From an uncultured Bacteroidales bacterium (GTDB taxonomy: Bacteria > Bacteroidota > Bacteroidia > Bacteroidales > UBA10428): a stretch of 57,111 nucleotides of DNA. This document shows positions 3,649-56,519 of this stretch, one piece after another; within the stretch, counting starts at the first letter, position 1, and every line of letters starts with the position of its first letter. A program made the position numbers and the translations under genes. Location: positions 1 to 57,111 of the forward strand of contig CAZMVE010000006.1 in assembly GCA_964569585.1 (NCBI GenBank), given 5' to 3'. The notes under the pieces are model-generated. The model was not told the origin of the DNA and searched no databases. It saw nothing but the letters and a program-made list of their open reading frames with translations.

Positions 3649-4140
3649 TTAATCAATTATCTCATACCACTTGCTTAACGAAAATTTTCCTTCTCCGTTA
3701 TAGTATCGAAAACGTATCAACTGCACCTCGGGATCTATTTCGCGCCACGAAATTTCAAGTGCTCCGGGATGGGTCAGATTGGTGATGTATCCCCTTGTTT
3801 CCCTTCGCATTCGATCTGCCTCACGGATAGTTATTTTCTTTTTTAAATCAAGTTTCCAGCGTTGTTTTGCAAATGCTTCTTCTATGCTTTCATCGCCCAA
3901 TACTACAATATCGATACTATTAAATGTAGTAATATAGCCTTTGTAGGGCGGAACAGTTTTGCCCAACTCCAATTGTTCGATATCACTCCAAAGTTCAGGT
4001 GTCTTTTTCTTAAAGATTAATAATTCTGCTATTTTGGAATTGATGGTATCCTGAAAGACTACATGCCTGAAATTATCCCCATCCTGAGCTTCACCAATCA
4101 ATCCAAACCGTATTATTTTTACAAAATGATTCCTTGCCAT
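3649..4140 (-). CDS. Hypothetical protein (163 aa)
   Basis: Clean ORF in an otherwise empty interval, convergent with the SusD-like gene. No family recognised by eye. Confidence 0.5.
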   Translation of the reverse strand: MARNHFVKIIRFGLIGEAQDGDNFRHVVFQDTINSKIAELLIFKKKTPELWSDIEQLELGKTVPPYKGYITTFNSIDIVVLGDESIEEAFAKQRWKLDLKKKITIREADRMRRETRGYITNLTHPGALEISWREIDPEVQLIRFRYYNGEGKFSLSKWYEIID

Positions 4141-4295: not shown

Positions 4296-5159
4296 ATGGA
4301 TAAGAAAGAAAAAAGAAACTTTTTTCAAAAGATAAGAGATAAATACAGATTTTCGGTTTACCGTGACGAAAGTTATGAAGAGGTGCTCAACTTAAGACTA
4401 TCGCGCATGAATGTGATAGCCTGGGGAGGAATTGCTACCCTTCTTTTTCTCGGAATTGTCATATCTATTATTGTCTATACACCGGTTAGAGAATTTATTC
4501 CGGGTTACCCTGATGAAAACACGCTAAAAAGCAGTATCAGAAATAAGCAACGACTGGATTCACTTGAAATTGAACTGAACAGGCGCGATATGTACCTGGA
4601 TAATATTAACCGTATCATATCGGGTGAAGAACCTGAGAATTACAATAATGTCAGGGATACAAACCAAAATTATAATGATATTAAATTCACTCGCTCTACA
4701 GAGGATTCTCTGATGAGGGAATATTTCAGGGAGGAAGAACAATTTGGAATAAATAAAGACAAGAAAAGCGAGACCATAGGAGGTATTTCCCAGATGCATT
4801 TCTTTGCACCTGTCAAAGGACTGGTTACCAATTCATTCAATTCGGTAGGAGATCATTATGGTACGGATATAGTTGCTGCTGCAAACGAAGTTGTAAAAGC
4901 TACGCTGGCAGGTACCATAATTATGGCAACATGGACACTCGAAACGGGTTGGGTTATTCAGATTCAGCATAAAAATAATCTTATATCAATTTATAAACAC
5001 AATGCTGAATTACTTAAAAGAGTTGGCGATTATGTAGAAGTTGGAGAAGCTATTGCAATTATTGGTAATTCCGGTGAATTAACAACGGGTCCGCATTTGC
5101 ATTTCGAATTGTGGTACAATGGTATTCCTCTTGACCCTGAAGATTATATTTCGTTCTGA
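4296..5159 (+). CDS. M23-family metallopeptidase (LytM/peptidoglycan DD-endopeptidase-like) with an N-terminal TM helix
   Basis: The C-terminal domain has GTDIVAAANEVVKATLAGTII...IQHKNNLISIYKHN...GNSGELTTGPHLHFELW, the M23 HxH signature context. Confidence 0.8.
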   Translation: MDKKEKRNFFQKIRDKYRFSVYRDESYEEVLNLRLSRMNVIAWGGIATLLFLGIVISIIVYTPVREFIPGYPDENTLKSSIRNKQRLDSLEIELNRRDMYLDNINRIISGEEPENYNNVRDTNQNYNDIKFTRSTEDSLMREYFREEEQFGINKDKKSETIGGISQMHFFAPVKGLVTNSFNSVGDHYGTDIVAAANEVVKATLAGTIIMATWTLETGWVIQIQHKNNLISIYKHNAELLKRVGDYVEVGEAIAIIGNSGELTTGPHLHFELWYNGIPLDPEDYISF

Positions 5160-5178
5160 AAGTGTTCATCCTTTATAA

Positions 5179-6333
5179 TTGATAATGAGAAAGAGAGTAG
5201 CCATTCTGGGATCGACTGGTTCAATTGGCACACAAACACTCGATGTCATTTCACATCATCCGGAAGTTTTTGAGGTATCGGTAATTACTGCCAGAAATAA
5301 CGTTGATCTGCTCGTTGATCAGGCGCTCAGATATATTCCAAAACATGTTGTTGTTACCAATGAAAAACGCTACCGGGAAGTATCAGATGCACTTAAAGGA
5401 TTACCAACTGAAGTACATGCAGGCGATAAGTATCTTTCGGAAATAGTACAACTGAAAGAGATTGATATTGTACTCTCTGCGCTTGTAGGATTTGCTGGTT
5501 TATTACCCACCATCAAAGCACTGGAATCGGGCAAGAATATTGCGTTGGCCAATAAAGAAACTCTTGTGGTTGCCGGAGAACTTATTACAGAACTGGCCCG
5601 GAATAATGACTGTCAAATTTATCCGGTCGATTCGGAACATTCGGCAATTTTTCAGTGTCTTGTCGGTGAGAACCGGAAAAGCATCGAAAAAATTTATCTT
5701 ACAGCCTCGGGAGGACCTTTTCGGGGAATGAACGCAGAACAGTTAAAGAAAGTAACGCTGCATCAGGCACTGGATCACCCCAACTGGTGCATGGGGAATA
5801 AGGTTACTATTGATTCAGCATCGCTGATGAATAAAGGACTGGAGGCTATTGAAGCAAAATGGCTTTTTGATCTTACACCTGAACAAGTAGAGATAATTAT
5901 CCATCCGCAATCTATTATTCATTCTATTGTTCAGTTTCACGACGGATCTATGAAAGCTCAGATGGGACTGCCTGATATGAGATTGCCCATTCAATATGCA
6001 CTGGGTTATCCGGAAAGATTATCAAGCGATTTCCCCCGATTTAATTTTATCGATTATCCGAAACTTACTTTCGAAAAACCTGATACTGATGTTTTTCGTA
6101 ATCTCGCCCTGGCTCTAAATTCTATGCATTCAGGTGGCAACATGCCGTGCATTATGAATGCAGCCAATGAAGTTACAGTTGATGCTTTTCTTAACGATCG
6201 GATTCCTTTTTACAGGATGCCTGAGATCATTGAAAACGCAATGGCTAAAGTCAGTTTTATAACCCACCCATCAATAGAGGATTATACGATAAGTGATTCC
6301 GAAGCAAGACAATTTGCAAGCGAGATGATATAA
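5179..6333 (+). CDS. dxr: 1-deoxy-D-xylulose-5-phosphate reductoisomerase
   Basis: N-terminal NADPH-binding motif VAILGSTGSIGTQTLDV, plus LANKE, PVDSEHSAIFQC and GGPF motifs. Size is 384 aa. The start may be the second Met at 5185. Confidence 0.93.
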   Translation: MIMRKRVAILGSTGSIGTQTLDVISHHPEVFEVSVITARNNVDLLVDQALRYIPKHVVVTNEKRYREVSDALKGLPTEVHAGDKYLSEIVQLKEIDIVLSALVGFAGLLPTIKALESGKNIALANKETLVVAGELITELARNNDCQIYPVDSEHSAIFQCLVGENRKSIEKIYLTASGGPFRGMNAEQLKKVTLHQALDHPNWCMGNKVTIDSASLMNKGLEAIEAKWLFDLTPEQVEIIIHPQSIIHSIVQFHDGSMKAQMGLPDMRLPIQYALGYPERLSSDFPRFNFIDYPKLTFEKPDTDVFRNLALALNSMHSGGNMPCIMNAANEVTVDAFLNDRIPFYRMPEIIENAMAKVSFITHPSIEDYTISDSEARQFASEMI

Positions 6334-44202: not shown

Positions 44203-44756
44203 AAATATTCAATTCTCAGCGACTTAAATAATTTCATAACGTCATGGCATGTGTAGCTCCTTCTCCGTAGTAAAACTACGAAGGAGAAGCGAAGCAATCT
44301 TGTTGGTTTTTGCCCTCATGCTGGGCAGGTAGGTTAGCAATTCATTTGCGAATTTTATTCGTTATAGTCATGTTCATTTCTTTTCCTTGATGAAAAGAAA
44401 CGAACCAAAGAAAAACCGAACGAAGTGAGTTCACGAATACCATTGAAAATAATAAATAGTATGAGTAATCAAGGCCCGGGCTTCTCAGCGATCCACCATC
44501 GGTTTGCTGTCTATCCCGATCAAGAATTTGTTGGATTTTGAATAACAAAACCTTACAAATTCTAAATCGGGATCATTTGCCCTTCGGGCACGAACAGCTT
44601 CACCGGGTGGATACCCTCGCCTCCGAAGCCAATGGCCGGTTATAATATTCCGCATCAAATGCGGAATCCAGTGAAATAGGATGTACTTTTTCGGACGAGG
44701 AACCAGATTGCGGCGACACTTTTTGGTAATGTACCGGAAGGAGTTTGGATTGAAAC
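44203..44756. repeat. Composite noncoding repeat, copy A (modules X1 44203-44330, W1 44326-44388, Y1 44467-44573, Z1 44574-44756)
   Basis: Positions 44467-44756 differ from 48856-49142 at only about a dozen positions. X1 shares both ends with 48692-48820. W1 recurs at 46551-46609. Y contains a 61-nt hairpin at 44513-44573. Confidence 0.85.
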
Positions 44757-44838
44757 GTTCTTTATATGAAAACTTCATCTGGCGTTTTCTAGCCCAAAGT
44801 TAAAAGAGGCTTTTGTAGGGTATGCATTATATTGTGGC

Positions 44839-48388: not shown

Positions 48389-48549
48389 ATTGATAATTTT
48401 AAAACAAGAAACGAAAAATACTGCATAAAACAAATTCGTGAAATTTTAAGTTACCCCGATTCAGATCAACGGTATATTTTGAATAGCTTGCTTTGCAATC
48501 TGGCTTCAACAACTATTATGTAACGCTAACGCGGCACTTAGACAAATTT

Positions 48550-49142
48550 CATTTGCCCTTCGGGCACGAACAGCTGCACCGGGTGGGTCCCCGCTTCCGA
48601 AGCCAATGGCCGATTATAACATTCCGCATTAATTGCGGAATCCAGTTAAATAGGATGTACTTTTTCGGACGAGGAACCGGATTGCGGCGACAAATATTCA
48701 ATTCTCAACGACTCGAATATATTTAAAACGTCATTGCGAGCACAGCGAAGCAACCGAGAACGAAGTACGAGTTCGGCGAAGCCAATCTTGTTGGTTTATG
48801 CCCTCATGCCGGGCGGGCACTTCCTTTTCTCCTTAATGAGAAAAGGAAGCAAAAGAATCAAGGCCTGGGCTTCTCAGCGATTCACCAGCGGTTTGCTGTC
48901 TATCCCGATCAAGAATTTGTTGGATTTTGAATAACAAAACCTTACAAATTCTAAATCGGGATCATTTGCCCTTCGGGCACGAACAGCTTCACCGGGTGGA
49001 TACCCTCGCCTCCGAAGCCAATGGCCGGTTATAATATTCCGCATCAAATGCGGAATCCAGTGAAATAGGATGTACTTTTTCGGACGAGGAGCCGGATTAC
49101 GGGGACACTTTTTGGTGATGTGCCCTAAGGAGTTTGGATTGA
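48550..49142. repeat. Composite noncoding repeat, copy B (modules Z2 48550-48692, X2 48692-48820, Y2 48856-48962, Z3 48963-49142)
   Basis: The same module set as copy A, with an extra diverged Z copy at the left. Z2 differs from Z3 by scattered substitutions and a 2-nt indel. Y2 hairpin at 48902-48962. Confidence 0.85.
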
Positions 49143-49160
49143 TTTAAATCCTTTGGGGCT

Positions 49161-49412
49161 TGTTCTTACTACTCTTCCTGCTGCTCTGTCAGGTTCAACT
49201 GCTGTTCTGTCAGGTTCAGGCTTTGTTTTGTGTGCGTAAGGTCCTGTTTTATGACTTTCATGCCCTGTTCTGTGATGTTGATAGGATGTTCTGACTAATT
49301 CACATGCTGTTTTGAGCAGGGAAGGCTTTGTTCTATGGTTGTCGACTCCTGTTTTCAGGTGTTCGTTCCTTGTTTTGACAGGGTAAGGTTGTGTTTTGAG
49401 GTGTTCACATGG
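49161..49412. repeat. Array of 12 tandem direct repeats with an exact 21-bp period
   Basis: TGTTYT (TGCTCT in unit 2) begins at 49161, 49182, 49203, ... 49392, always 21 nt apart. The remaining ~15 nt of each unit are diverged. Confidence 0.9.
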
Positions 49413-49433
49413 AGGGTTGGGATATTTATATAA

Positions 49434-49466
49434 AACCCTGACAGGGTTCTGTACCCTGTCAGGGTT
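49434..49466. repeat. REP-like hairpin (14-bp stem, 5-nt loop)
   Basis: AACCCTGACAGGGT (49434-49447) pairs with ACCCTGTCAGGGTT (49453-49466). It is a sibling of the palindrome at 55135-55167 and lies 16 nt downstream of the stop of the minus-strand ORF 49482-50168. Confidence 0.8.
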
Positions 49467-49481
49467 AACAAGTGATCAAAA

Positions 49482-50168
49482 TCACTGTACGGTTTCCACG
49501 GTTTTATTTTTCAGGGTTTTGCCCTTGCCATAATCGGTAATGTTGCGCCACGATTTGTAGCGGTTGATGAATTCCTGATCTTCGACAAGGCCCTTTACCA
49601 GGTCGTCCATGATATCGAGGCTGTTACGCAGGTTTTTTATTTTTTCGACGATTTCTGATCCCTTCTCCGATTTGTCTTTCGATACGGTAGTGCGCTCGGA
49701 GGCCTGCTTCCTGTAGTCGGTAATTAGCTGACGGATATTATCTATATCGGCGTTCGTTACCTTGAATGATGCCAGGTTTTCAAGATTTTCAACAGCTTTA
49801 TCGGCAATACCGGCACAACGGTTTACGGATTCCGGTTCGGGCCCGCGTGAGAGTGCCGAGTAGGAAATACCTACCAGGGGGAGCAGGGTAAGCCGGTTGT
49901 TCTTCTTGGCCCAGGCGCTCATTTTTTTCATCAGTTTGTAAGTGGTGTTCATCAGCTGGTCATAGGTGTTGTCCTTTAAATCGGTTAATCCGCCGGGGTC
50001 CGTGGCCGATACCGATTCGTTCAGACTGTTCACCTGGTTATACTCCGTATCGAGCAGGGAGTATGTCGATGCAATTTCGGGCTCATTTTCCCAGAGGGAA
50101 CGTTCGTTGTTCATGCCGTTGAGTACTACGCCCAACATGTTCAGAAAATTAAATTGTGTTTGTCTCAT
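49482..50168 (-). CDS. Hypothetical protein (228 aa, predicted mostly alpha-helical)
   Basis: Clean ORF with coding-like composition. No family recognised. It is followed by the small hairpin AGTGATTTTGATCACT, which contains its TGA stop and a second in-frame TGA. Confidence 0.55.
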   Translation of the reverse strand: MRQTQFNFLNMLGVVLNGMNNERSLWENEPEIASTYSLLDTEYNQVNSLNESVSATDPGGLTDLKDNTYDQLMNTTYKLMKKMSAWAKKNNRLTLLPLVGISYSALSRGPEPESVNRCAGIADKAVENLENLASFKVTNADIDNIRQLITDYRKQASERTTVSKDKSEKGSEIVEKIKNLRNSLDIMDDLVKGLVEDQEFINRYKSWRNITDYGKGKTLKNKTVETVQ

Positions 50169-50633
50169 AATAATGTAAGGTTTTAAATTAATAAATATAA
50201 CAGTTAATGAAAACTCTATTGAAACCCTTACAGGAACCGGCTTATTTCAAATATAACTTCTTCTCTTACCTATGAGGCTGCCCCGTGAGGCAGCCTGTTT
50301 CGCAATTGCCTTTACCTGAATTGTTATTTACAACGTGAATATAAAAAAAATAGTATAAAAATAAAATATGTATGGGCCGTTGAGTGAAATTAATTTTGGA
50401 TTTTGTGATAGGGGTGAAAATTAAATCATTGTTTTCAAGATTATTACTGAAGAAAAGAATACGTATTTTAGGCCGGAACGGGCAAATTTTGTAAATTTCT
50501 GGGGAGTTAGGGGAGAGGAAAAATTAAAAGCCCCCGTATTGTAAGACGAGGGTGGCTTACATGTTTTCACAACGGAATAATTTTTATTTATTGAAACAAC
50601 TATGTATCACGATAGAATTAATTGAGTAATAAG

Positions 50634-50730: not shown

Positions 50731-53700
50731 ATGGAAAAAACGCTTGGTATTGATCTAGGAACAAACTCTATAGGTCTGGCTCTTAAAAAGGGAAATGAAT
50801 TCGAATGGTTTGGGGTATATACTTTTAAGAAAGGTGTTGGACAAGATAAATCTGGTGAGTTTTCTTTTGCTGCTGATAGGACAAAGCACAGATCATCCAG
50901 AAGATTATACAATGCCAGACGATATAGAAAATGGGAAACTTTAAAGGTGTTAATTGAAAATAATTATTGTCCACTTGATTTGAAAAATTTAAGTAAATGG
51001 AAACATTACATAAGAGGCATTGGAAGAAAGTATCCGATTGAAAATAATTCGTTCCAAAAATGGATAAAACTGGATTTTAATGGAGATGGCAAGCCTGATT
51101 ATTCTAGTCCTTATCAACTCAGAAGGGAGCTAATAGAAAAAGAATTAGACTTAGGAAATAAAGAAAACCGATATAAAATTGGCAGAGTGTTTTATCATAT
51201 TGCTCAAAGAAGAGGTTTTAAAAGTAGCAGAAAGCTCGGAGCCAATGAAAAAACAGCCGTATACAAAGGTAGTAGTGAAACAAATACGATCGGGCGGAAT
51301 GAATATGAAAGCTTACTTATTGAATGCGGTTCTTTAGGAGCAGCATTGGCAAGACTGGAAGAGGAAGGGATAAGAATTCGTAATAGATACACATTACGAA
51401 AAGATTATAAGAATGAAATAGATCAAATTATTTCAAAACAAAAAATTTCTGATGAATCCTTCTCAGAGCGGCTCATAAAAGCAATATTCTATCAAAGACC
51501 ATTAAGATCCCAAAAAGGTTTGGTTGGTAAATGTACATTAGAACCTAGAAAGCATAGATGTCCAATTAGCCATCCAAAATTTGAATTATATAGAGCTTGG
51601 TCTTTCATAAATAATATTAAGTTTAGGAACACAGATAACGGTGATTGCCAACAGTTACCTTTAGATATTAGAAATGGTATTTTTGAAAACGTCTTTATGC
51701 GTTTAAAATCAAGCTTTCCTTTTGAAGATATTAGAAAGTATATTGAAAAGAAAGGTGATAAAAACTGGGAATTAAATTATAAGAAAAAGGCTGATAAGGT
51801 AAGTGTTTCAGGTTGTCCGGTTTCTGCAAGATTTAGAGCTGTTTTTGGAGAAAATTGGCTAATATTTAAGAAAGAAATAGCCAGAACAAACAAAAAAGGA
51901 GAACCAGTAAACAAAACTTATGATATTGAGGGTATTTGGCATATACTGTTTTCTTCAGAAGACGAAGAGTTTATTGAAGAATTTTTATTGTCTGTTCTAA
52001 ACCTAGAGGAAGAAAATGTAAAGGGCTTAATGACATTATGGAACCATTTTCCGGTTGGGTATGCCAATTTAAGTTTAAAAGCCATCAATAATATCCTCCC
52101 TTTTTTACAAGAGGGCATTATTTATGTCGAATCCGTTTTTTTAGCTAAAATTCCTGAGATAATAGGGGATAAAACATTTAATCAAAATAAAGAATTAATC
52201 CTGTCAACACTGCAAACTGAAATTGAACAAAACAGATTAGAAAAAGCAGTAGTTGATATTACTAATAATCTTATTTCGAAATATTATTTACTTGACTATA
52301 ACGAAAGGTTTGGATGGAAAAATACTGATTACAAGTTGGATCGAAACGATAAAAATGACATAATACAATGTTGCATTGAGCATTATGGTGAAAAAAGATG
52401 GAATAATTTTATGGATGTTGTACTAAAAAATACAATTCTTGCAGGTGTAGAATCAAAATACCAGACTTTTTTTGAAGATCATAAAAGAGAACATATAAAA
52501 CAACCGCAATTATTAGATCAAATTCAGCAATGGATAATGGCTAATTTTAATGAAGTGACAGAAAAACAATTATCCAAATTATATCATCCTTCAAAAATTG
52601 ATATTTATCCTAGTATAGAGGGTCAAACATATTTAAAAAGTCCTAAGACGGGAGCCTTTAAAAATCCAATGGCCTATAAGACTTTACATATTTTAAGACG
52701 AGTAATTAATCATTTAATTGAAACTGGGAAAATTGATCAAGAAACCAGGATAGTAGTAGAAGTCTCGCGTGAAATGAACGACGCTAATAAAAGATGGGCA
52801 ATTGAAACATACCAAAGAAAAAGAGAAAATGAAAACAAGGAATTTGCTATTGCAATAGCAGGATTAGTTCAAGACCAGGATTTTAGGGGAGAAGCTGATC
52901 CCAGCAGTGAGAAAGACATGGAAAAGTTTAGATTGTGGTTTGATCAATTAGACGATAGCAGTACGATTTTAAAAGAGATTAATGCAACTAAATCAGACAT
53001 TGATAAATACCGGCTTTGGAAAGAACAGGGATGTAAATGTATGTATACAGGCAAAACCATAAACTTAACAGATTTATTTGATACAAATAAAATTGATTTT
53101 GAGCATACAATTCCTAGGAGTAAGTCATTTGATAGTTCAATGGAGAACATGACTGTCTGCTATGCGGACTATAACAGAAATGTTAAAAGAAATAAAATAC
53201 CTACTGAGTTACCGAACTATTTAGTTGACACACCGGAAGGTAATGCTATTGAACCTAGGTTAGAAGTATGGAGAAAAAAGGTTGATGAATTAAAAAAACA
53301 AGTTGAAGATTGCAAGTTTCGATCTAAAATAGCTATTGATAAAAAACAAAAAGATGAAGCCATAAAACAAAAGCACCTTAGGACATTTGACTTCGATTAT
53401 TGGAGAAATAAGCTGGACCGATTTACAAGAGAAGACATCCCAAGCGGATTTAAGAGAAGTCAATTAGTGGATACACAAATTATTACAAAGTATGCGTTTC
53501 ATTATTTAAAGACCGTTTTTCAAAAAGTAGATATCCAAAAAGGATTAGTGACTGCCGAATTTAGAAAGATTTATGAGATTCAACCCAAGGAGATTAAGAA
53601 GAATAGAACAAGGCACCATCATCATGCAATAGATGCGGCTGTTTTAACTTTAATTCCACCTGCTTTACAACGACAAGAAATTTTAAAGAAAGCCTATGAA

Positions 53701-54807
53701 TACAATGAAGCAACCGGTGAACAATATCATGAAAAGCCCTTCAATAGTTTTAACTCAAATTCTATTAAGGATATTGAAAAAACAATTCTGATAAATGATA
53801 TGCCTAATAAGGATCAAGCATTTTCTCCTGGAAAAAAATTGGTAAGAAAAAGGGGGCGAGTGGTCTGGACTAAGGATTCAAATGGACAAGTTGCGAGGGA
53901 CACAAGTGGTAAAAAAATTCCAAAAATAGCTCAAGGAGATTCTATTAGAGGGCAGTTGCATTTAGATACATTTTATGGCAAAATTGAATCATTAGAAAAA
54001 AAAGGTGAGTTTTGGATGGTTGGCCGAAAAATGGTTGAGGATATAAATTTGAAATCTGATGCAATTATTGATAAGACTTTGGCTGAACATATTAAAAAGC
54101 AAGTAGATGAAGGAGTTTCTCTTTCATTACTTGTCGACTTAAATGGCAATAGACTTAGACATGTTAGATGCAGAGTTAAAGCAGGTAGGGGATTCTTGGC
54201 AACTGAGAGCGTAACAGTGATAAAAGAACAAACTTATAAATCAAAGCATGAATACAAGAATTACTACTATACAAATTCTGGCGACAATTATGCATTTGGC
54301 TTATATGTAGGCGCTAATCAAAGAAAAATTGTTCCGGTCAATTTATTTGATGCTTCAAAAATTAATAATTACAAACATGTTGATGATTCTAAAGAATTAT
54401 TCGAGCCATTAATTTTCATAGGAAATGGGAAGAATAAAGTAGAAGCAAAGCTGTATCATGTTTTTCAACCTGGACAAAAGGTTCTGTTCTATAATGAAAA
54501 TAAAGATGAGCTTAAAGATTTGGGTACTGAAGAATTGTCTAAACGACTTTATTATGTTAGAACATTAGCAGATGCCAAACAAGGATTAATTCAATTTCAG
54601 CATCATTTAGAAGCAAGAAATGATGAACAATTAAACAACGATTTTCCCAAGGATCAATTTGGTGCTAAAGGCAAAAATGGATTTTCTATTTTTTCGTTAG
54701 AGTTTGTTGCTCCTAGATTATTATTAAGTGCTGGAAACTTCAATTTTATTATAGAAAATAAGGATTTTGAATTTACAATGTATGGTAGTATTCTGTTTAA
54801 ATACTAA
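50731..54807 (+). CDS. cas9: Type II-C CRISPR-associated endonuclease Cas9 (1358 aa)
   Basis: RuvC-I MEKTLGIDLGTNSIGLA, RuvC-II RIVVEVSREMN, HNH KIDFEHTIPRSKSFDSSMENMTVCYADYNRNVKRNKIP, RuvC-III RHHHHAIDAAVL. Arg-rich bridge-helix-like segment RTKHRSSRRLYNARRYRKW. Confidence 0.95.
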   Translation: MEKTLGIDLGTNSIGLALKKGNEFEWFGVYTFKKGVGQDKSGEFSFAADRTKHRSSRRLYNARRYRKWETLKVLIENNYCPLDLKNLSKWKHYIRGIGRKYPIENNSFQKWIKLDFNGDGKPDYSSPYQLRRELIEKELDLGNKENRYKIGRVFYHIAQRRGFKSSRKLGANEKTAVYKGSSETNTIGRNEYESLLIECGSLGAALARLEEEGIRIRNRYTLRKDYKNEIDQIISKQKISDESFSERLIKAIFYQRPLRSQKGLVGKCTLEPRKHRCPISHPKFELYRAWSFINNIKFRNTDNGDCQQLPLDIRNGIFENVFMRLKSSFPFEDIRKYIEKKGDKNWELNYKKKADKVSVSGCPVSARFRAVFGENWLIFKKEIARTNKKGEPVNKTYDIEGIWHILFSSEDEEFIEEFLLSVLNLEEENVKGLMTLWNHFPVGYANLSLKAINNILPFLQEGIIYVESVFLAKIPEIIGDKTFNQNKELILSTLQTEIEQNRLEKAVVDITNNLISKYYLLDYNERFGWKNTDYKLDRNDKNDIIQCCIEHYGEKRWNNFMDVVLKNTILAGVESKYQTFFEDHKREHIKQPQLLDQIQQWIMANFNEVTEKQLSKLYHPSKIDIYPSIEGQTYLKSPKTGAFKNPMAYKTLHILRRVINHLIETGKIDQETRIVVEVSREMNDANKRWAIETYQRKRENENKEFAIAIAGLVQDQDFRGEADPSSEKDMEKFRLWFDQLDDSSTILKEINATKSDIDKYRLWKEQGCKCMYTGKTINLTDLFDTNKIDFEHTIPRSKSFDSSMENMTVCYADYNRNVKRNKIPTELPNYLVDTPEGNAIEPRLEVWRKKVDELKKQVEDCKFRSKIAIDKKQKDEAIKQKHLRTFDFDYWRNKLDRFTREDIPSGFKRSQLVDTQIITKYAFHYLKTVFQKVDIQKGLVTAEFRKIYEIQPKEIKKNRTRHHHHAIDAAVLTLIPPALQRQEILKKAYEYNEATGEQYHEKPFNSFNSNSIKDIEKTILINDMPNKDQAFSPGKKLVRKRGRVVWTKDSNGQVARDTSGKKIPKIAQGDSIRGQLHLDTFYGKIESLEKKGEFWMVGRKMVEDINLKSDAIIDKTLAEHIKKQVDEGVSLSLLVDLNGNRLRHVRCRVKAGRGFLATESVTVIKEQTYKSKHEYKNYYYTNSGDNYAFGLYVGANQRKIVPVNLFDASKINNYKHVDDSKELFEPLIFIGNGKNKVEAKLYHVFQPGQKVLFYNENKDELKDLGTEELSKRLYYVRTLADAKQGLIQFQHHLEARNDEQLNNDFPKDQFGAKGKNGFSIFSLEFVAPRLLLSAGNFNFIIENKDFEFTMYGSILFKY

Positions 54808-54910: not shown

Positions 54911-55534
54911 ATGCAAAAAATAGAACCTCTGCAACACGGCCAGTACTACCACATTTATAATTGCGGGATAAACGGGGAACAGTTGTTTCGCGAAACAACA
55001 AACTACGAACATTTTCTGCGGTTATATGAAAAATATATCGACCCTGTTGCCAAAACCTTTGCCTGGTGCCTGATGGGGAATCATTTTCATTTTTTGGTGA
55101 GAATCAGGGAAGAGAAGGAGATTGATGCAAAATTAAACCTGACAGGTTTTCAAAACCTGTCAGGTTTGGGAGCAACAAAACCGCTCCATCAGTACTTTTC
55201 AAACTTATTTAATGCATATACAAAAGCATTTAATAAATGGTATTCGCGTCATGGTAGCTTATTTGAACGACCCTTCAAACGGAAGCGAATCGATAACGAA
55301 TCCTATTTAAAACAAGTTGTAATTTATATTCATAACAACCCGGTACATCATGGTTTTTGCAACCACGCGATCGAATATCCATGGAGTTCATACTTAACCT
55401 GTATTTCTTTAAAAACTACAAAAATAAAACGCCCCGATGTACTGGACTGGTTTGGCGGTAAAAAACGGTTTGAAACGGACCATAAGGAAGCCGGAGCCGG
55501 AATTAACGAAGTTGAAGCCATTCTGGAATTATAA
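54911..55534 (+). CDS. IS200/IS605-type Y1 (HUH) transposase-like protein, RAYT-like (REP-associated tyrosine transposase family)
   Basis: HUH motif CLMGNHFHFLVRI and catalytic-Tyr context VVIYIHNNPVHHG. Size is 207 aa. It has a palindrome-encoded insert LNLTGFQNLSGL between the two motifs. No companion tnpB and no obvious IS ends were seen. Confidence 0.8.
   Translation: MQKIEPLQHGQYYHIYNCGINGEQLFRETTNYEHFLRLYEKYIDPVAKTFAWCLMGNHFHFLVRIREEKEIDAKLNLTGFQNLSGLGATKPLHQYFSNLFNAYTKAFNKWYSRHGSLFERPFKRKRIDNESYLKQVVIYIHNNPVHHGFCNHAIEYPWSSYLTCISLKTTKIKRPDVLDWFGGKKRFETDHKEAGAGINEVEAILEL
55135..55167. repeat. Perfect 33-nt palindrome (15-bp stem, 3-nt loop) inside the Y1 transposase-like CDS
   Basis: AAACCTGACAGGTTT-TCA-AAACCTGTCAGGTTT. 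It is translated in frame as LNLTGFQNLSGL. Confidence 0.9.
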
Positions 55535-55619: not shown

Positions 55620-56519
55620 ATGATCAAGCGAACCCTGTATTTCGGAAATCCCTGCCACTTAAGTAAAAAAGACCTTCAACTGCTCTTCGAACCGAAGGAT
55701 GATAATGAACCGAAAACCATCCCGATAGAAGATATAGGGATGGTGGTTCTCGATAACCAGCAGATTACCCTGAGCAATGCCCTGCTGATGGCATTAATGG
55801 ACAATAATGCTGCCGTGCTTACAACAAACTTTCAGCATTTACCCGAAGGATTGCTTCTTCCTATGGCCGGGCATCATGCTTTTACCGATAAGGTGAAAAA
55901 TCAGTTCGAAGCTTCCGAACCTTTAAAAAAAAACCTCTGGCAGCAAACTGTATCGGCTAAAATAAGGAACCAGGCAGCTTTATTGAAGGTTATGGGCATC
56001 GATACGGAAAATATGCTGTTCTGGGCATCGAAGGTTCGCAGCGGCGACCCCGATAATTATGAAGCACGTGCTGCTGTCTGGTACTGGCAAAACCTGTTTG
56101 TAGGTAATGAAAAGTTTAAGCGTGGCCGTTTTGAAGCGCCGCCCAATAATTTGCTGAATTACGGGTATGCTATTTTGCGGGGTGTTATTGCCCGTTCGCT
56201 GGTAGGAAGCGGCATGACCACTTTTACAGGTATTCATCACCGGAATAAATACAATCCGTATTGCCTGGCCGATGATATTATGGAACCCTACCGGCCCTTT
56301 GTCGATAAGGTTGTGCTGGATATACTCTTTGAAGAAGAACAAATCGAAGAGCTTACGCCTGCAATAAAGAAAAAATTGCTGGTGATACCGGCCATGGATA
56401 TTGTGATCGATGCACAGTCGAGCCCCTTAATGATCGGGACACAACGTACAGCCGCCTCGCTGATGGATTGTTTTGAAGGGATCGGCAGAAAGATAATATT
56501 TCCTGTTTTGATATTATAA
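55620..56519 (+). CDS. cas1: CRISPR-associated endonuclease Cas1 (type II)
   Basis: A 299-aa protein starting MIKRTLYFGNPCHLS. NYGYAILRG and HHRNKYNPYCLADDIMEPYRPFVD are conserved Cas1 metal-site contexts. Confidence 0.93.
   Translation: MIKRTLYFGNPCHLSKKDLQLLFEPKDDNEPKTIPIEDIGMVVLDNQQITLSNALLMALMDNNAAVLTTNFQHLPEGLLLPMAGHHAFTDKVKNQFEASEPLKKNLWQQTVSAKIRNQAALLKVMGIDTENMLFWASKVRSGDPDNYEARAAVWYWQNLFVGNEKFKRGRFEAPPNNLLNYGYAILRGVIARSLVGSGMTTFTGIHHRNKYNPYCLADDIMEPYRPFVDKVVLDILFEEEQIEELTPAIKKKLLVIPAMDIVIDAQSSPLMIGTQRTAASLMDCFEGIGRKIIFPVLIL

Follow-up and report, generated by a model that had tools for sequence, protein, structure and literature searches.

A helically phased 21-bp repeat array beside the gene of an orphan all-helical protein in Bacteroidota, a candidate DNA binding-site array

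The array and its surroundings in the window

The window, i.e., the whole 57,111-bp stretch of DNA that was analysed, derives from an uncultured Bacteroidales bacterium and carries an array of 21-bp direct repeats close to a gene encoding a 228-aa protein. On the minus strand the gene comes first, followed by its intrinsic terminator, a gap of 7 nt after the T tail, and then the array (Table 1). Setting the sequence in rows of 21 confirms that the 12 units follow one another with zero indels, as the initial annotation had described. The count of twelve TGTTYT cores and their spacing of 21 bp also hold, with the correction that the core is present in 11 of the 12 units, the unit at 49182 carrying TGCTCT (one mismatch), which had gone unmentioned. 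Read on the strand of the gene, each unit has CARAACA at its end and a weaker GAAC-like box 10–11 nt upstream of it.

Table 1. Features of the module in the window, and arrays upstream of the gene at remote loci
Feature	Position	Strand	Description
Repeat array	49161..49412	−	12 head-to-tail 21-bp units; recognised from layout, statistics and the same architecture in homologous loci
Intrinsic terminator of the 228-aa gene	49434..49466	−	14-bp perfect stem, 5-nt loop, then UUUUAUAU
Partner gene	49482..50168	−	228-aa all-alpha rod-like orphan protein; basic C-terminal tail DYGKGKTLKNK conserved
Probable promoter and upstream part of the module	50169..50357	−	putative extent, by analogy with paralogous copies only
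L045/L046			upstream array, 21 nt
L049 (Flaviaesturariibacter aridisoli)			upstream array, 41 nt
L051			upstream, 42 nt, two different arrays
L052			upstream array, 21/42 nt
L054			upstream array, 41 nt, 7 units, 98% identical throughout
L058			upstream array, 21 nt, 15 units
L060			upstream array, 21 nt, 14 units

The hexamer TGTTYT occurs 64 times on the plus strand of the window (1.1 per kb), and no other chain of three or more is present there at any spacing from 6 to 60. The exact chain of 10 within the array compares with a maximum of 2 in 200 shuffles, and array-like target sites elsewhere in the window do not exceed chance. Between units, pairwise identity reaches 0.88 for the core and 0.38 for the remaining 15 nt; the heavy divergence outside the hexamer that had been reported is thus real, yet the remainder is still well above register-scrambled controls (0.256, sd 0.014), with semi-conserved positions at 7 (G), 8 (W), 9 (S), 13 (K), 14 (T), and 16 (A). 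With an identity of 0.59 to its own consensus, this is the most degenerate array of the set compared here, its core being retained. Tandem Repeats Finder recovers units 2–3 only, and the remark that standard annotation does not explain the array is borne out.

Several neighbours named by the initial annotation lose their relevance upon comparison. The hairpin beside the array had been called a REP hairpin. Rather, its minus-strand stem and the T tail behind it identify it as the intrinsic terminator of the 228-aa gene (ΔG −29.9 kcal/mol, z −5.9). A REP/RAYT element was rejected, as the palindrome CCCTGWCAGGG is found in the window only at 49436–49464; at other loci the terminator position is taken by different terminators, and no Y1 gene is present. 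The 5′ arm of the terminator (49434–49447, AACCCTGACAGGGT) resembles the best-conserved array unit (49199–49219, AACCTGACAGAAC), likewise in the orthologous locus L001, and the terminator and the array units may share ancestry. The CRISPR-Cas locus and the Y1 protein had been put forward as neighbours of interest. Since no other locus shares a cas or Y1 gene, their vicinity is coincidental. The RAYT-like Y1 transposase gene (54911–55534, plus strand) lies between cas9 (50731–54807) and cas1 (55620–56519), and its product matches NCBIfam REP_Tyr_transpos at E 1.2e-14 with a score below the curated cut-off.

Similarly, the structured repeat module 'Z3', which had been named as lying beside the array, is an unrelated interspersed repeat that is absent from all related loci and hence not part of the module. 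It is about 150 nt long and occurs at 44573–44718, 48549–48700, and 48962–49107 in the same orientation with 90–92% identity; the first copy overlaps a 97-aa ORF (44485..44778) that has no family match and may be spurious. Hairpins are found between the copies at 48902–48962 and 48820–48849; the arms of one measure 28 nt (82% complementary) and enclose a 5-nt loop, whereas those of the other measure 15 nt (93% complementary) and have no loop. No direct repeats flank the module in the window, the 150-nt repeat being on one side only. The GC content is 0.43–0.53 over 48400–50100 against 0.30–0.35 on either side, and this raised GC suggests that the gene, the array, and the adjacent repeats may constitute a compositionally foreign insert.

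Translation of the array had been named as a finding that would overturn its description as a binding array. A translated array would specify a heptad-repeat peptide (21 nt equal 7 codons), or would be the pseudogene of one, and there is something to suggest this: the frame xCA-GAA-Cxx (relative to the core) has the fewest stops and is wholly open in 6 arrays, JGI ORF calls of 62–66 aa exist in L006/L007, and the window has a 44-aa ORF on the plus strand (49160–49294) besides a long open frame on the minus strand. In the latter (49130–49484), the TGA of the gene is followed by TTT, a second TGA, and 115 codons without a stop that span the terminator and the entire array. The best explanation is the T-poor strand, on which open frames are expected by chance, and the same frame is closed in L001. 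A readthrough extension of the 228-aa gene was rejected on the strength of the two stops and of the closed frame in L001. Six-frame translation gives at least one stop in every frame over the array region, and the sole frame open across the 12 units, in phase with the upstream gene, has no start codon. In L021/L024 the consensus unit has TAA in the best frame, which results in 12 stops, and each forward-strand frame has at least 4; likewise, the remote arrays of 41-nt period have stops inside the unit. No 3-nt periodicity is seen in the conservation across the related arrays, and their core does not vary at what would be third codon positions. Frames, stop counts in 29 arrays, and the pattern of conservation agree in marking the array as non-coding; the coding explanation is refuted for the family, and the probability that it retains is very small.

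Homologous loci and the extent of the module

The 39 close homologues of the 228-aa protein are found in Bacteroidales and Mariniphaga MAGs and in metagenomes; a second, word-indexed homologue search with a broad alignment added almost nothing. In total 61 loci were retrieved, and repeat periods were read from lag autocorrelation. At about 30 distinct loci, a count that depends on metagenome assemblies often broken at repeats, proteins of 43–82% identity are accompanied by a 21-nt-period array directly downstream of the gene, and no downstream period other than 21 and its multiples was seen among them. The arrays of this close clade comprise 10–28 units in uniform orientation. An array is lacking at three or four loci whose gene is intact or partial, among them L011, the closest GTDB relative (80% identity). 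A hairpin and T tail follow the stop codon in 21 of 24 related loci, and at 5 loci, the window included, the array begins −3 to 9 nt from the T tail, too close to leave room for a promoter. In L021/L024 (~4687–4910) the array begins 12 nt past the stop codon without a terminator and must hence be co-transcribed as part of the 3′ UTR; the consensus unit there contains TAA. A 67%-identical homologue (L013) has a weak six-unit stretch of 21-nt period upstream (414–540), its downstream side being cut by the contig end.

When the units are aligned on the core, the gene strand gives a family consensus of CAGAAC-nGC-nnnn-wAAC-mTGA (short form CAGAAC-N8-AAC-NTGA). The boxes CAGAAC (columns 1–6) and AAC (columns 15–17) are conserved at about 1.1 bit per position, with drift in the remaining columns. 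About 60% of all units have an AA step at columns 4 and 15. The 10.5-nt harmonic exceeds the 21-nt fundamental 2.8-fold on average, the values for the window being 0.091 and 0.024. Hence, one A-rich box is presented per turn of B-DNA, with all boxes on one face of the helix, which supports the same-face geometry of a binding array that had been proposed from the window.

No phase slip occurs in the 29 arrays examined (459 units), and only one edge unit fits another offset better. The absence of indels despite 25–40% divergence from the consensus implies selection on the phase, and together with the contrast between core and remainder it upholds the earlier claim that phase and core are under selection. 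Homogeneity is highest in the middle of an array and gives way to degenerate edges, with no polarity of growth seen, and copy number varies between close relatives with conserved flanks (at least 22 units in L029 against 14 in L020). Such features indicate that the arrays turn over like satellites, under constraint. They are also what a functionless minisatellite, generated by slippage and now decaying, would display, as would the degeneracy of the window array and the few array-less loci. The initial annotation had named variable unit lengths without a conserved core at orthologous loci as the mark of a neutral minisatellite; upon comparison, the period is identical at about 30 loci and related in remote clades, and the core motif is conserved across proteins only 22–45% identical. 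With the phase kept throughout and the core held at 0.88 while the remainder falls to 0.38, a neutral origin is already largely refuted and very improbable; the neutral and the coding explanations together take up only a slight part of the probability.

The module is autonomous. All-vs-all comparison of the ORFs at 40 loci revealed no other conserved neighbour gene. L006 and L007, from one metagenome and with unrelated flanks, share 1265 bp (4812–6076) at 99% identity, beginning 189 bp before the ATG and stopping exactly with the last array unit, with no terminal inverted repeats or target-site duplication seen at the junctions. Likewise, two paralogues in one MAG have 1148 bp in common at 81% identity, again up to the end of the array. 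The shared segment of the paralogous or duplicated copies starts 128–189 bp upstream of the start codon, and one MAG holds three copies. The gene and the array thus behave as a discrete unit of about 1.2 kb, with several copies per genome. The module is also vertically inherited, since L001 shares synteny with the window (GH10 and lipocalin genes). A tblastn comparison with 72,556 plasmids and 50,697 phages was negative, IMG/VR yielded no relative, and the loci lie on chromosomal-looking contigs of up to 181 kb with housekeeping neighbours. At the F. aridisoli locus, direct repeats of about 230 bp with 87% identity (2407–2644 and 3721–3938) bracket the array and the gene. Each repeat begins immediately behind a terminator, a picture that would fit either the integration of a small circle through homologous recombination or a duplication of the target region.

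The wider family extends well beyond these loci. A profile search of 1.84 billion representative proteins gave 2,719 matches at E ≤ 1e-3, which are protein clusters at 50% identity and a lower bound for the family; at E ≤ 1e-10 the number is 676. Of the 150 matches listed, nearly all are 200–235 aa long, and the sampled members carry no Pfam domain. P0166 (343 aa) and P0185 (411 aa) have an extra C-terminal domain of 120–190 aa after a conserved D-x-G-K-G motif. Named members are annotated as 'hypothetical protein' of Chitinophagaceae, including that of the cultured F. aridisoli (WP_131851790.1). All seven remote loci for which upstream sequence is available have an array upstream of the gene, inverted and T-rich on the gene strand, with a period of 21 or 41–42 nt (Table 1). 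The CARAA/GAAC-type core is retained in the remote arrays of L045/L046, L049, and L054; in reverse complement it reads CCARAATG in L049 and CGAACTGTAAAAG in L054, to be compared with CAGAACTGTAAAC in L024. A single inversion of the gene cassette would turn this upstream-inverted layout into the downstream-direct layout of the clade of the window. Divergence of the array consensus follows that of the protein tree (Mantel rho 0.54, p 5e-4), a pattern that would also be expected from simple co-inheritance. The ORF 49482–50168, which had been suggested for binding experiments merely as a neighbour, has thereby emerged as the evolutionary partner of the array, with arrays beside the gene family at about 30 close and 7 remote loci.

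The partner protein and the reading of the array

The 228-aa protein has no match in Pfam, NCBIfam, PHROGs, PADLOC, or the sequences of the PDB, either with a single sequence or with a profile. An AlphaFold2 model built on a diverse alignment (pLDDT 94.9, pTM 0.79) consists of helices only, with no beta strand, and comprises one helix of 56 residues plus a low-confidence C-terminal tail that carries the DYGKGKTLKNK motif. In the model this helix would measure about 84 Å (1.5 Å per residue) against 71 Å for 21 bp of B-DNA (3.4 Å/bp). Foldseek searches with the model against the PDB (twice) and BFVD returned nothing significant (best E 0.035, TM ≤ 0.44), the best matches being generic coiled-coil proteins. 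No helix-turn-helix, winged helix, or ribbon-helix-helix is recognisable in the protein. The median pI of the family is 5.9–6.4, and the last 20 residues are basic in most members. The G-K/R-G tail is presumably reminiscent of minor-groove hooks of the AT-hook, H-NS, and Lsr2 kind, which is taken as a lead only. A PWM scan of promoter regions gave no enrichment of unit-like operators in the promoter of the gene itself, and an autoregulatory operator was therefore rejected.

Gene and array point to a two-part module of which the array is the cis-acting half. Its best explanation, to which a probability of about one half is given, is a phased array of candidate DNA binding sites for the adjacent protein. 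Each 21-bp unit would present two A-rich boxes (CARAAC and GAAC/AAAC) 10–11 bp apart, i.e., one box per helical turn and all on the same face of the duplex. The elongated all-helical protein may bind these boxes cooperatively and form an extended nucleoprotein complex, which could serve in anchoring or segregation, in local silencing or insulation, or in the maintenance of a selfish cassette. A role at the level of DNA is suggested by several aspects. The periods of 21, 41, and 42 equal 2 or 4 helical turns, an integer in every clade; the orientation of the array relative to the gene flips between clades while its location beside the gene is kept; at several loci the array directly abuts a strong terminator; and the module ends at the last unit, so that no distal promoter can belong to it. 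Moreover, neither strand of the array folds better than shuffles (z −0.5 and −0.15), and Rfam 15 has no match at the gathering threshold in the whole window and none in the array at E up to 1. Against binding by this protein stand the lack of a recognisable DNA-binding fold in the predicted structure, the pI of the family, the lack of an operator in its own promoter, the three or four array-less loci, and the co-transcribed array of L021/L024.

The missing fold and the array of L021/L024 lend some weight to a module acting as RNA, in which the array would be transcribed, through read-through of the terminator or from a promoter of its own, and the repeat RNA bound or processed by the adjacent protein; it might then be a sponge, the antitoxin partner of a system like type III toxin-antitoxins, or a short guide like that of TIGR-Tas. 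A mobile, multi-copy module of a protein plus repeats with no other partner is the layout of ToxIN and of TIGR-TasA. TIGR arrays too lie up- or downstream of a small helical protein and alternate short conserved boxes with variable stretches, and the conserved strand of the arrays described here always reads away from the gene. Nevertheless, an RNA function appears unlikely. A strong terminator precedes the array at 21 of the 24 loci, promoter room is lacking at five, and no distal promoter belongs to the module. In remote clades it is the complementary strand that runs in the direction of the gene, neither strand has a predicted structure, and a half-period of 10.5 nt makes no evident sense at the level of RNA. 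The variable positions change by descent between neighbouring units, unlike acquired spacers, and the protein has neither a Nop domain (52 members and a fold search) nor a ToxN-like match.

The opposite departure from the binding-site array is a DNA element that acts independently of the neighbouring protein, the gene being mere cargo. Such an element could be curved or easily wrapped phased A-rich DNA, a set of sites for a host factor, or an end used in the recombination or mobility of the cassette. It would agree with AA steps phased at 10.5 bp over at least 24 turns, with the exact coincidence of the module boundary and the array end, with the direct repeats that bracket the F. aridisoli module, and with the absence of a DNA-binding fold in the protein. 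However, the array occurs only beside this protein family, down to about 22% protein identity, and its consensus co-diverges with the protein; the window has no sites beyond chance outside the array, and sites for a host factor would have no need to accompany a single gene. An array indifferent to its protein is accordingly improbable.

A more far-reaching version, put forward tentatively as possible rather than probable, is that the module represents an undescribed system, widespread in Bacteroidota, in which a rod protein of a new fold assembles on its own phased array, either as DNA or as TIGR-like RNA. One protein would then occupy each 21-bp unit of the DNA, or assembly would take place on the repeat RNA, and the whole would be a self-contained nucleoprotein module with its own mobility that does not derive from any known Rep, Par, Tas, or toxin-antitoxin family.

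A 'hypothetical protein' present in thousands of Bacteroidota genomes and metagenomes gains a first functional handle in the form of a cis partner that looks obligate, keeps strictly to a period of two helical turns, and has a CARAA/GAAC core of deep conservation. Polymerisation of the protein on the array would mean a new fold for DNA binding and a new kind of nucleoprotein structure on the chromosome, in a phylum where little is known about nucleoid organisers, silencers, and centromere-like sites. Should the array act as RNA, then CRISPR, TIGR, and type III toxin-antitoxin would be joined by a new system composed of a protein and repeat RNA. Both outcomes are directly testable, as F. aridisoli is a cultured carrier. 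In addition, lag autocorrelation finds arrays with a 6-nt core that are missed by Tandem Repeats Finder and annotation pipelines.

Comparison with known systems

The initial annotation had likened the array to iterons and parC-type centromeres. In its layout the likeness is good: twelve 21-bp sites, directly repeated at constant helical phase next to a gene, agree with the 17–22-bp sites by which iterons are recognised. At the level of the protein, membership in either family fails, with no family match and no fold match. The repA-incA iterons of P1 and the sopB-sopC locus of F, in which twelve 43-bp repeats lie downstream of sopB, are examples of repeats that flank the gene of their binder. 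Rep proteins have winged-helix domains and ParB/SopB proteins have a helix-turn-helix, and their replicons possess an AT-rich unwinding region or a ParA partner. The present module shares with incA and sopC a dozen or so phased direct repeats next to a partner gene and the co-evolution of protein and repeats, whereas winged helix, helix-turn-helix, ParA partner, and replicon context are all missing here. A plasmid iteron/Rep system was rejected for want of winged-helix (Rep_3, RepA, pi, TrfA) domains and of any plasmid or phage setting.

The parC repeats measure 10–11 bp in R1 and 20 bp in pSK41, lie beside the gene of the binding protein, and offer one site per turn. ParR binds them cooperatively through a ribbon-helix-helix N-terminus, which results in an extended helical nucleoprotein, and the ParM ATPase is encoded in the same plasmid operon. 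Similarly, the array described here has one A-rich box per 10.5 bp in a 21-bp unit and adjoins its partner gene. It differs from parC/ParR in its all-alpha protein of no known fold, the absence of an NTPase neighbour, its chromosomal loci, and arrays of up to 28 units. Both ParR-parC and SopB-sopC were rejected, as no ribbon-helix-helix or ParB-type helix-turn-helix is present and no ParM, ParA, or TubZ neighbour occurs at 40 loci.

In ToxIN, 36-nt ToxI repeats lie upstream of the toxin gene on the same transcript and form pseudoknots that are bound by an endoribonuclease of the ToxN fold. The present module resembles it as a mobile pair of protein and tandem repeats with a terminator between them, often in several copies. 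Unlike ToxI, the units are 21 nt long, lie downstream of the terminator, and have no predicted structure, and the all-alpha protein has no similarity to ToxN/AbiQ. A type III toxin-antitoxin (ToxIN, CptIN, TenpIN) was rejected since the array lies behind a strong terminator, folds no better than shuffles on either strand, and is accompanied by no ToxN/AbiQ match in PADLOC or Pfam. A search of the literature on 21-bp repeats, silencers, or type III toxin-antitoxins in Bacteroidetes found nothing relevant.

TIGR-Tas systems and solo TasA combine a small helical, coiled-coil-like protein with a long tandem array up- or downstream of it; these arrays elude standard repeat finders, co-evolve with the protein, and have no adaptation genes, and the hallmarks of TIGR-Tas are a Nop domain, a 36-nt unit, and box C/D dual spacers (PMC12045711; bioRxiv 10.64898/2026.09.09.750476). 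The pairing of a single small helical protein with a hard-to-detect array of which only short boxes are conserved is common to TIGR-TasA and the module described here, as are the co-evolution of the two and the absence of adaptation genes. The units of the latter differ in being 21 nt long (41–42 in remote clades), with a variable block of about 5–8 nt that descends by duplication; in L054 the units are 98% identical throughout. TIGR-Tas was rejected, as none of 52 family members had a Nop match at E up to 10, and no Nop5, Prp31, Tas, or IS110 structure was among the best 50 Foldseek matches in the PDB. In geometry and layout the array is like parC, incA, and sopC, and the module is best described as a protein, of a fold without known match, with its cognate phased repeat array.
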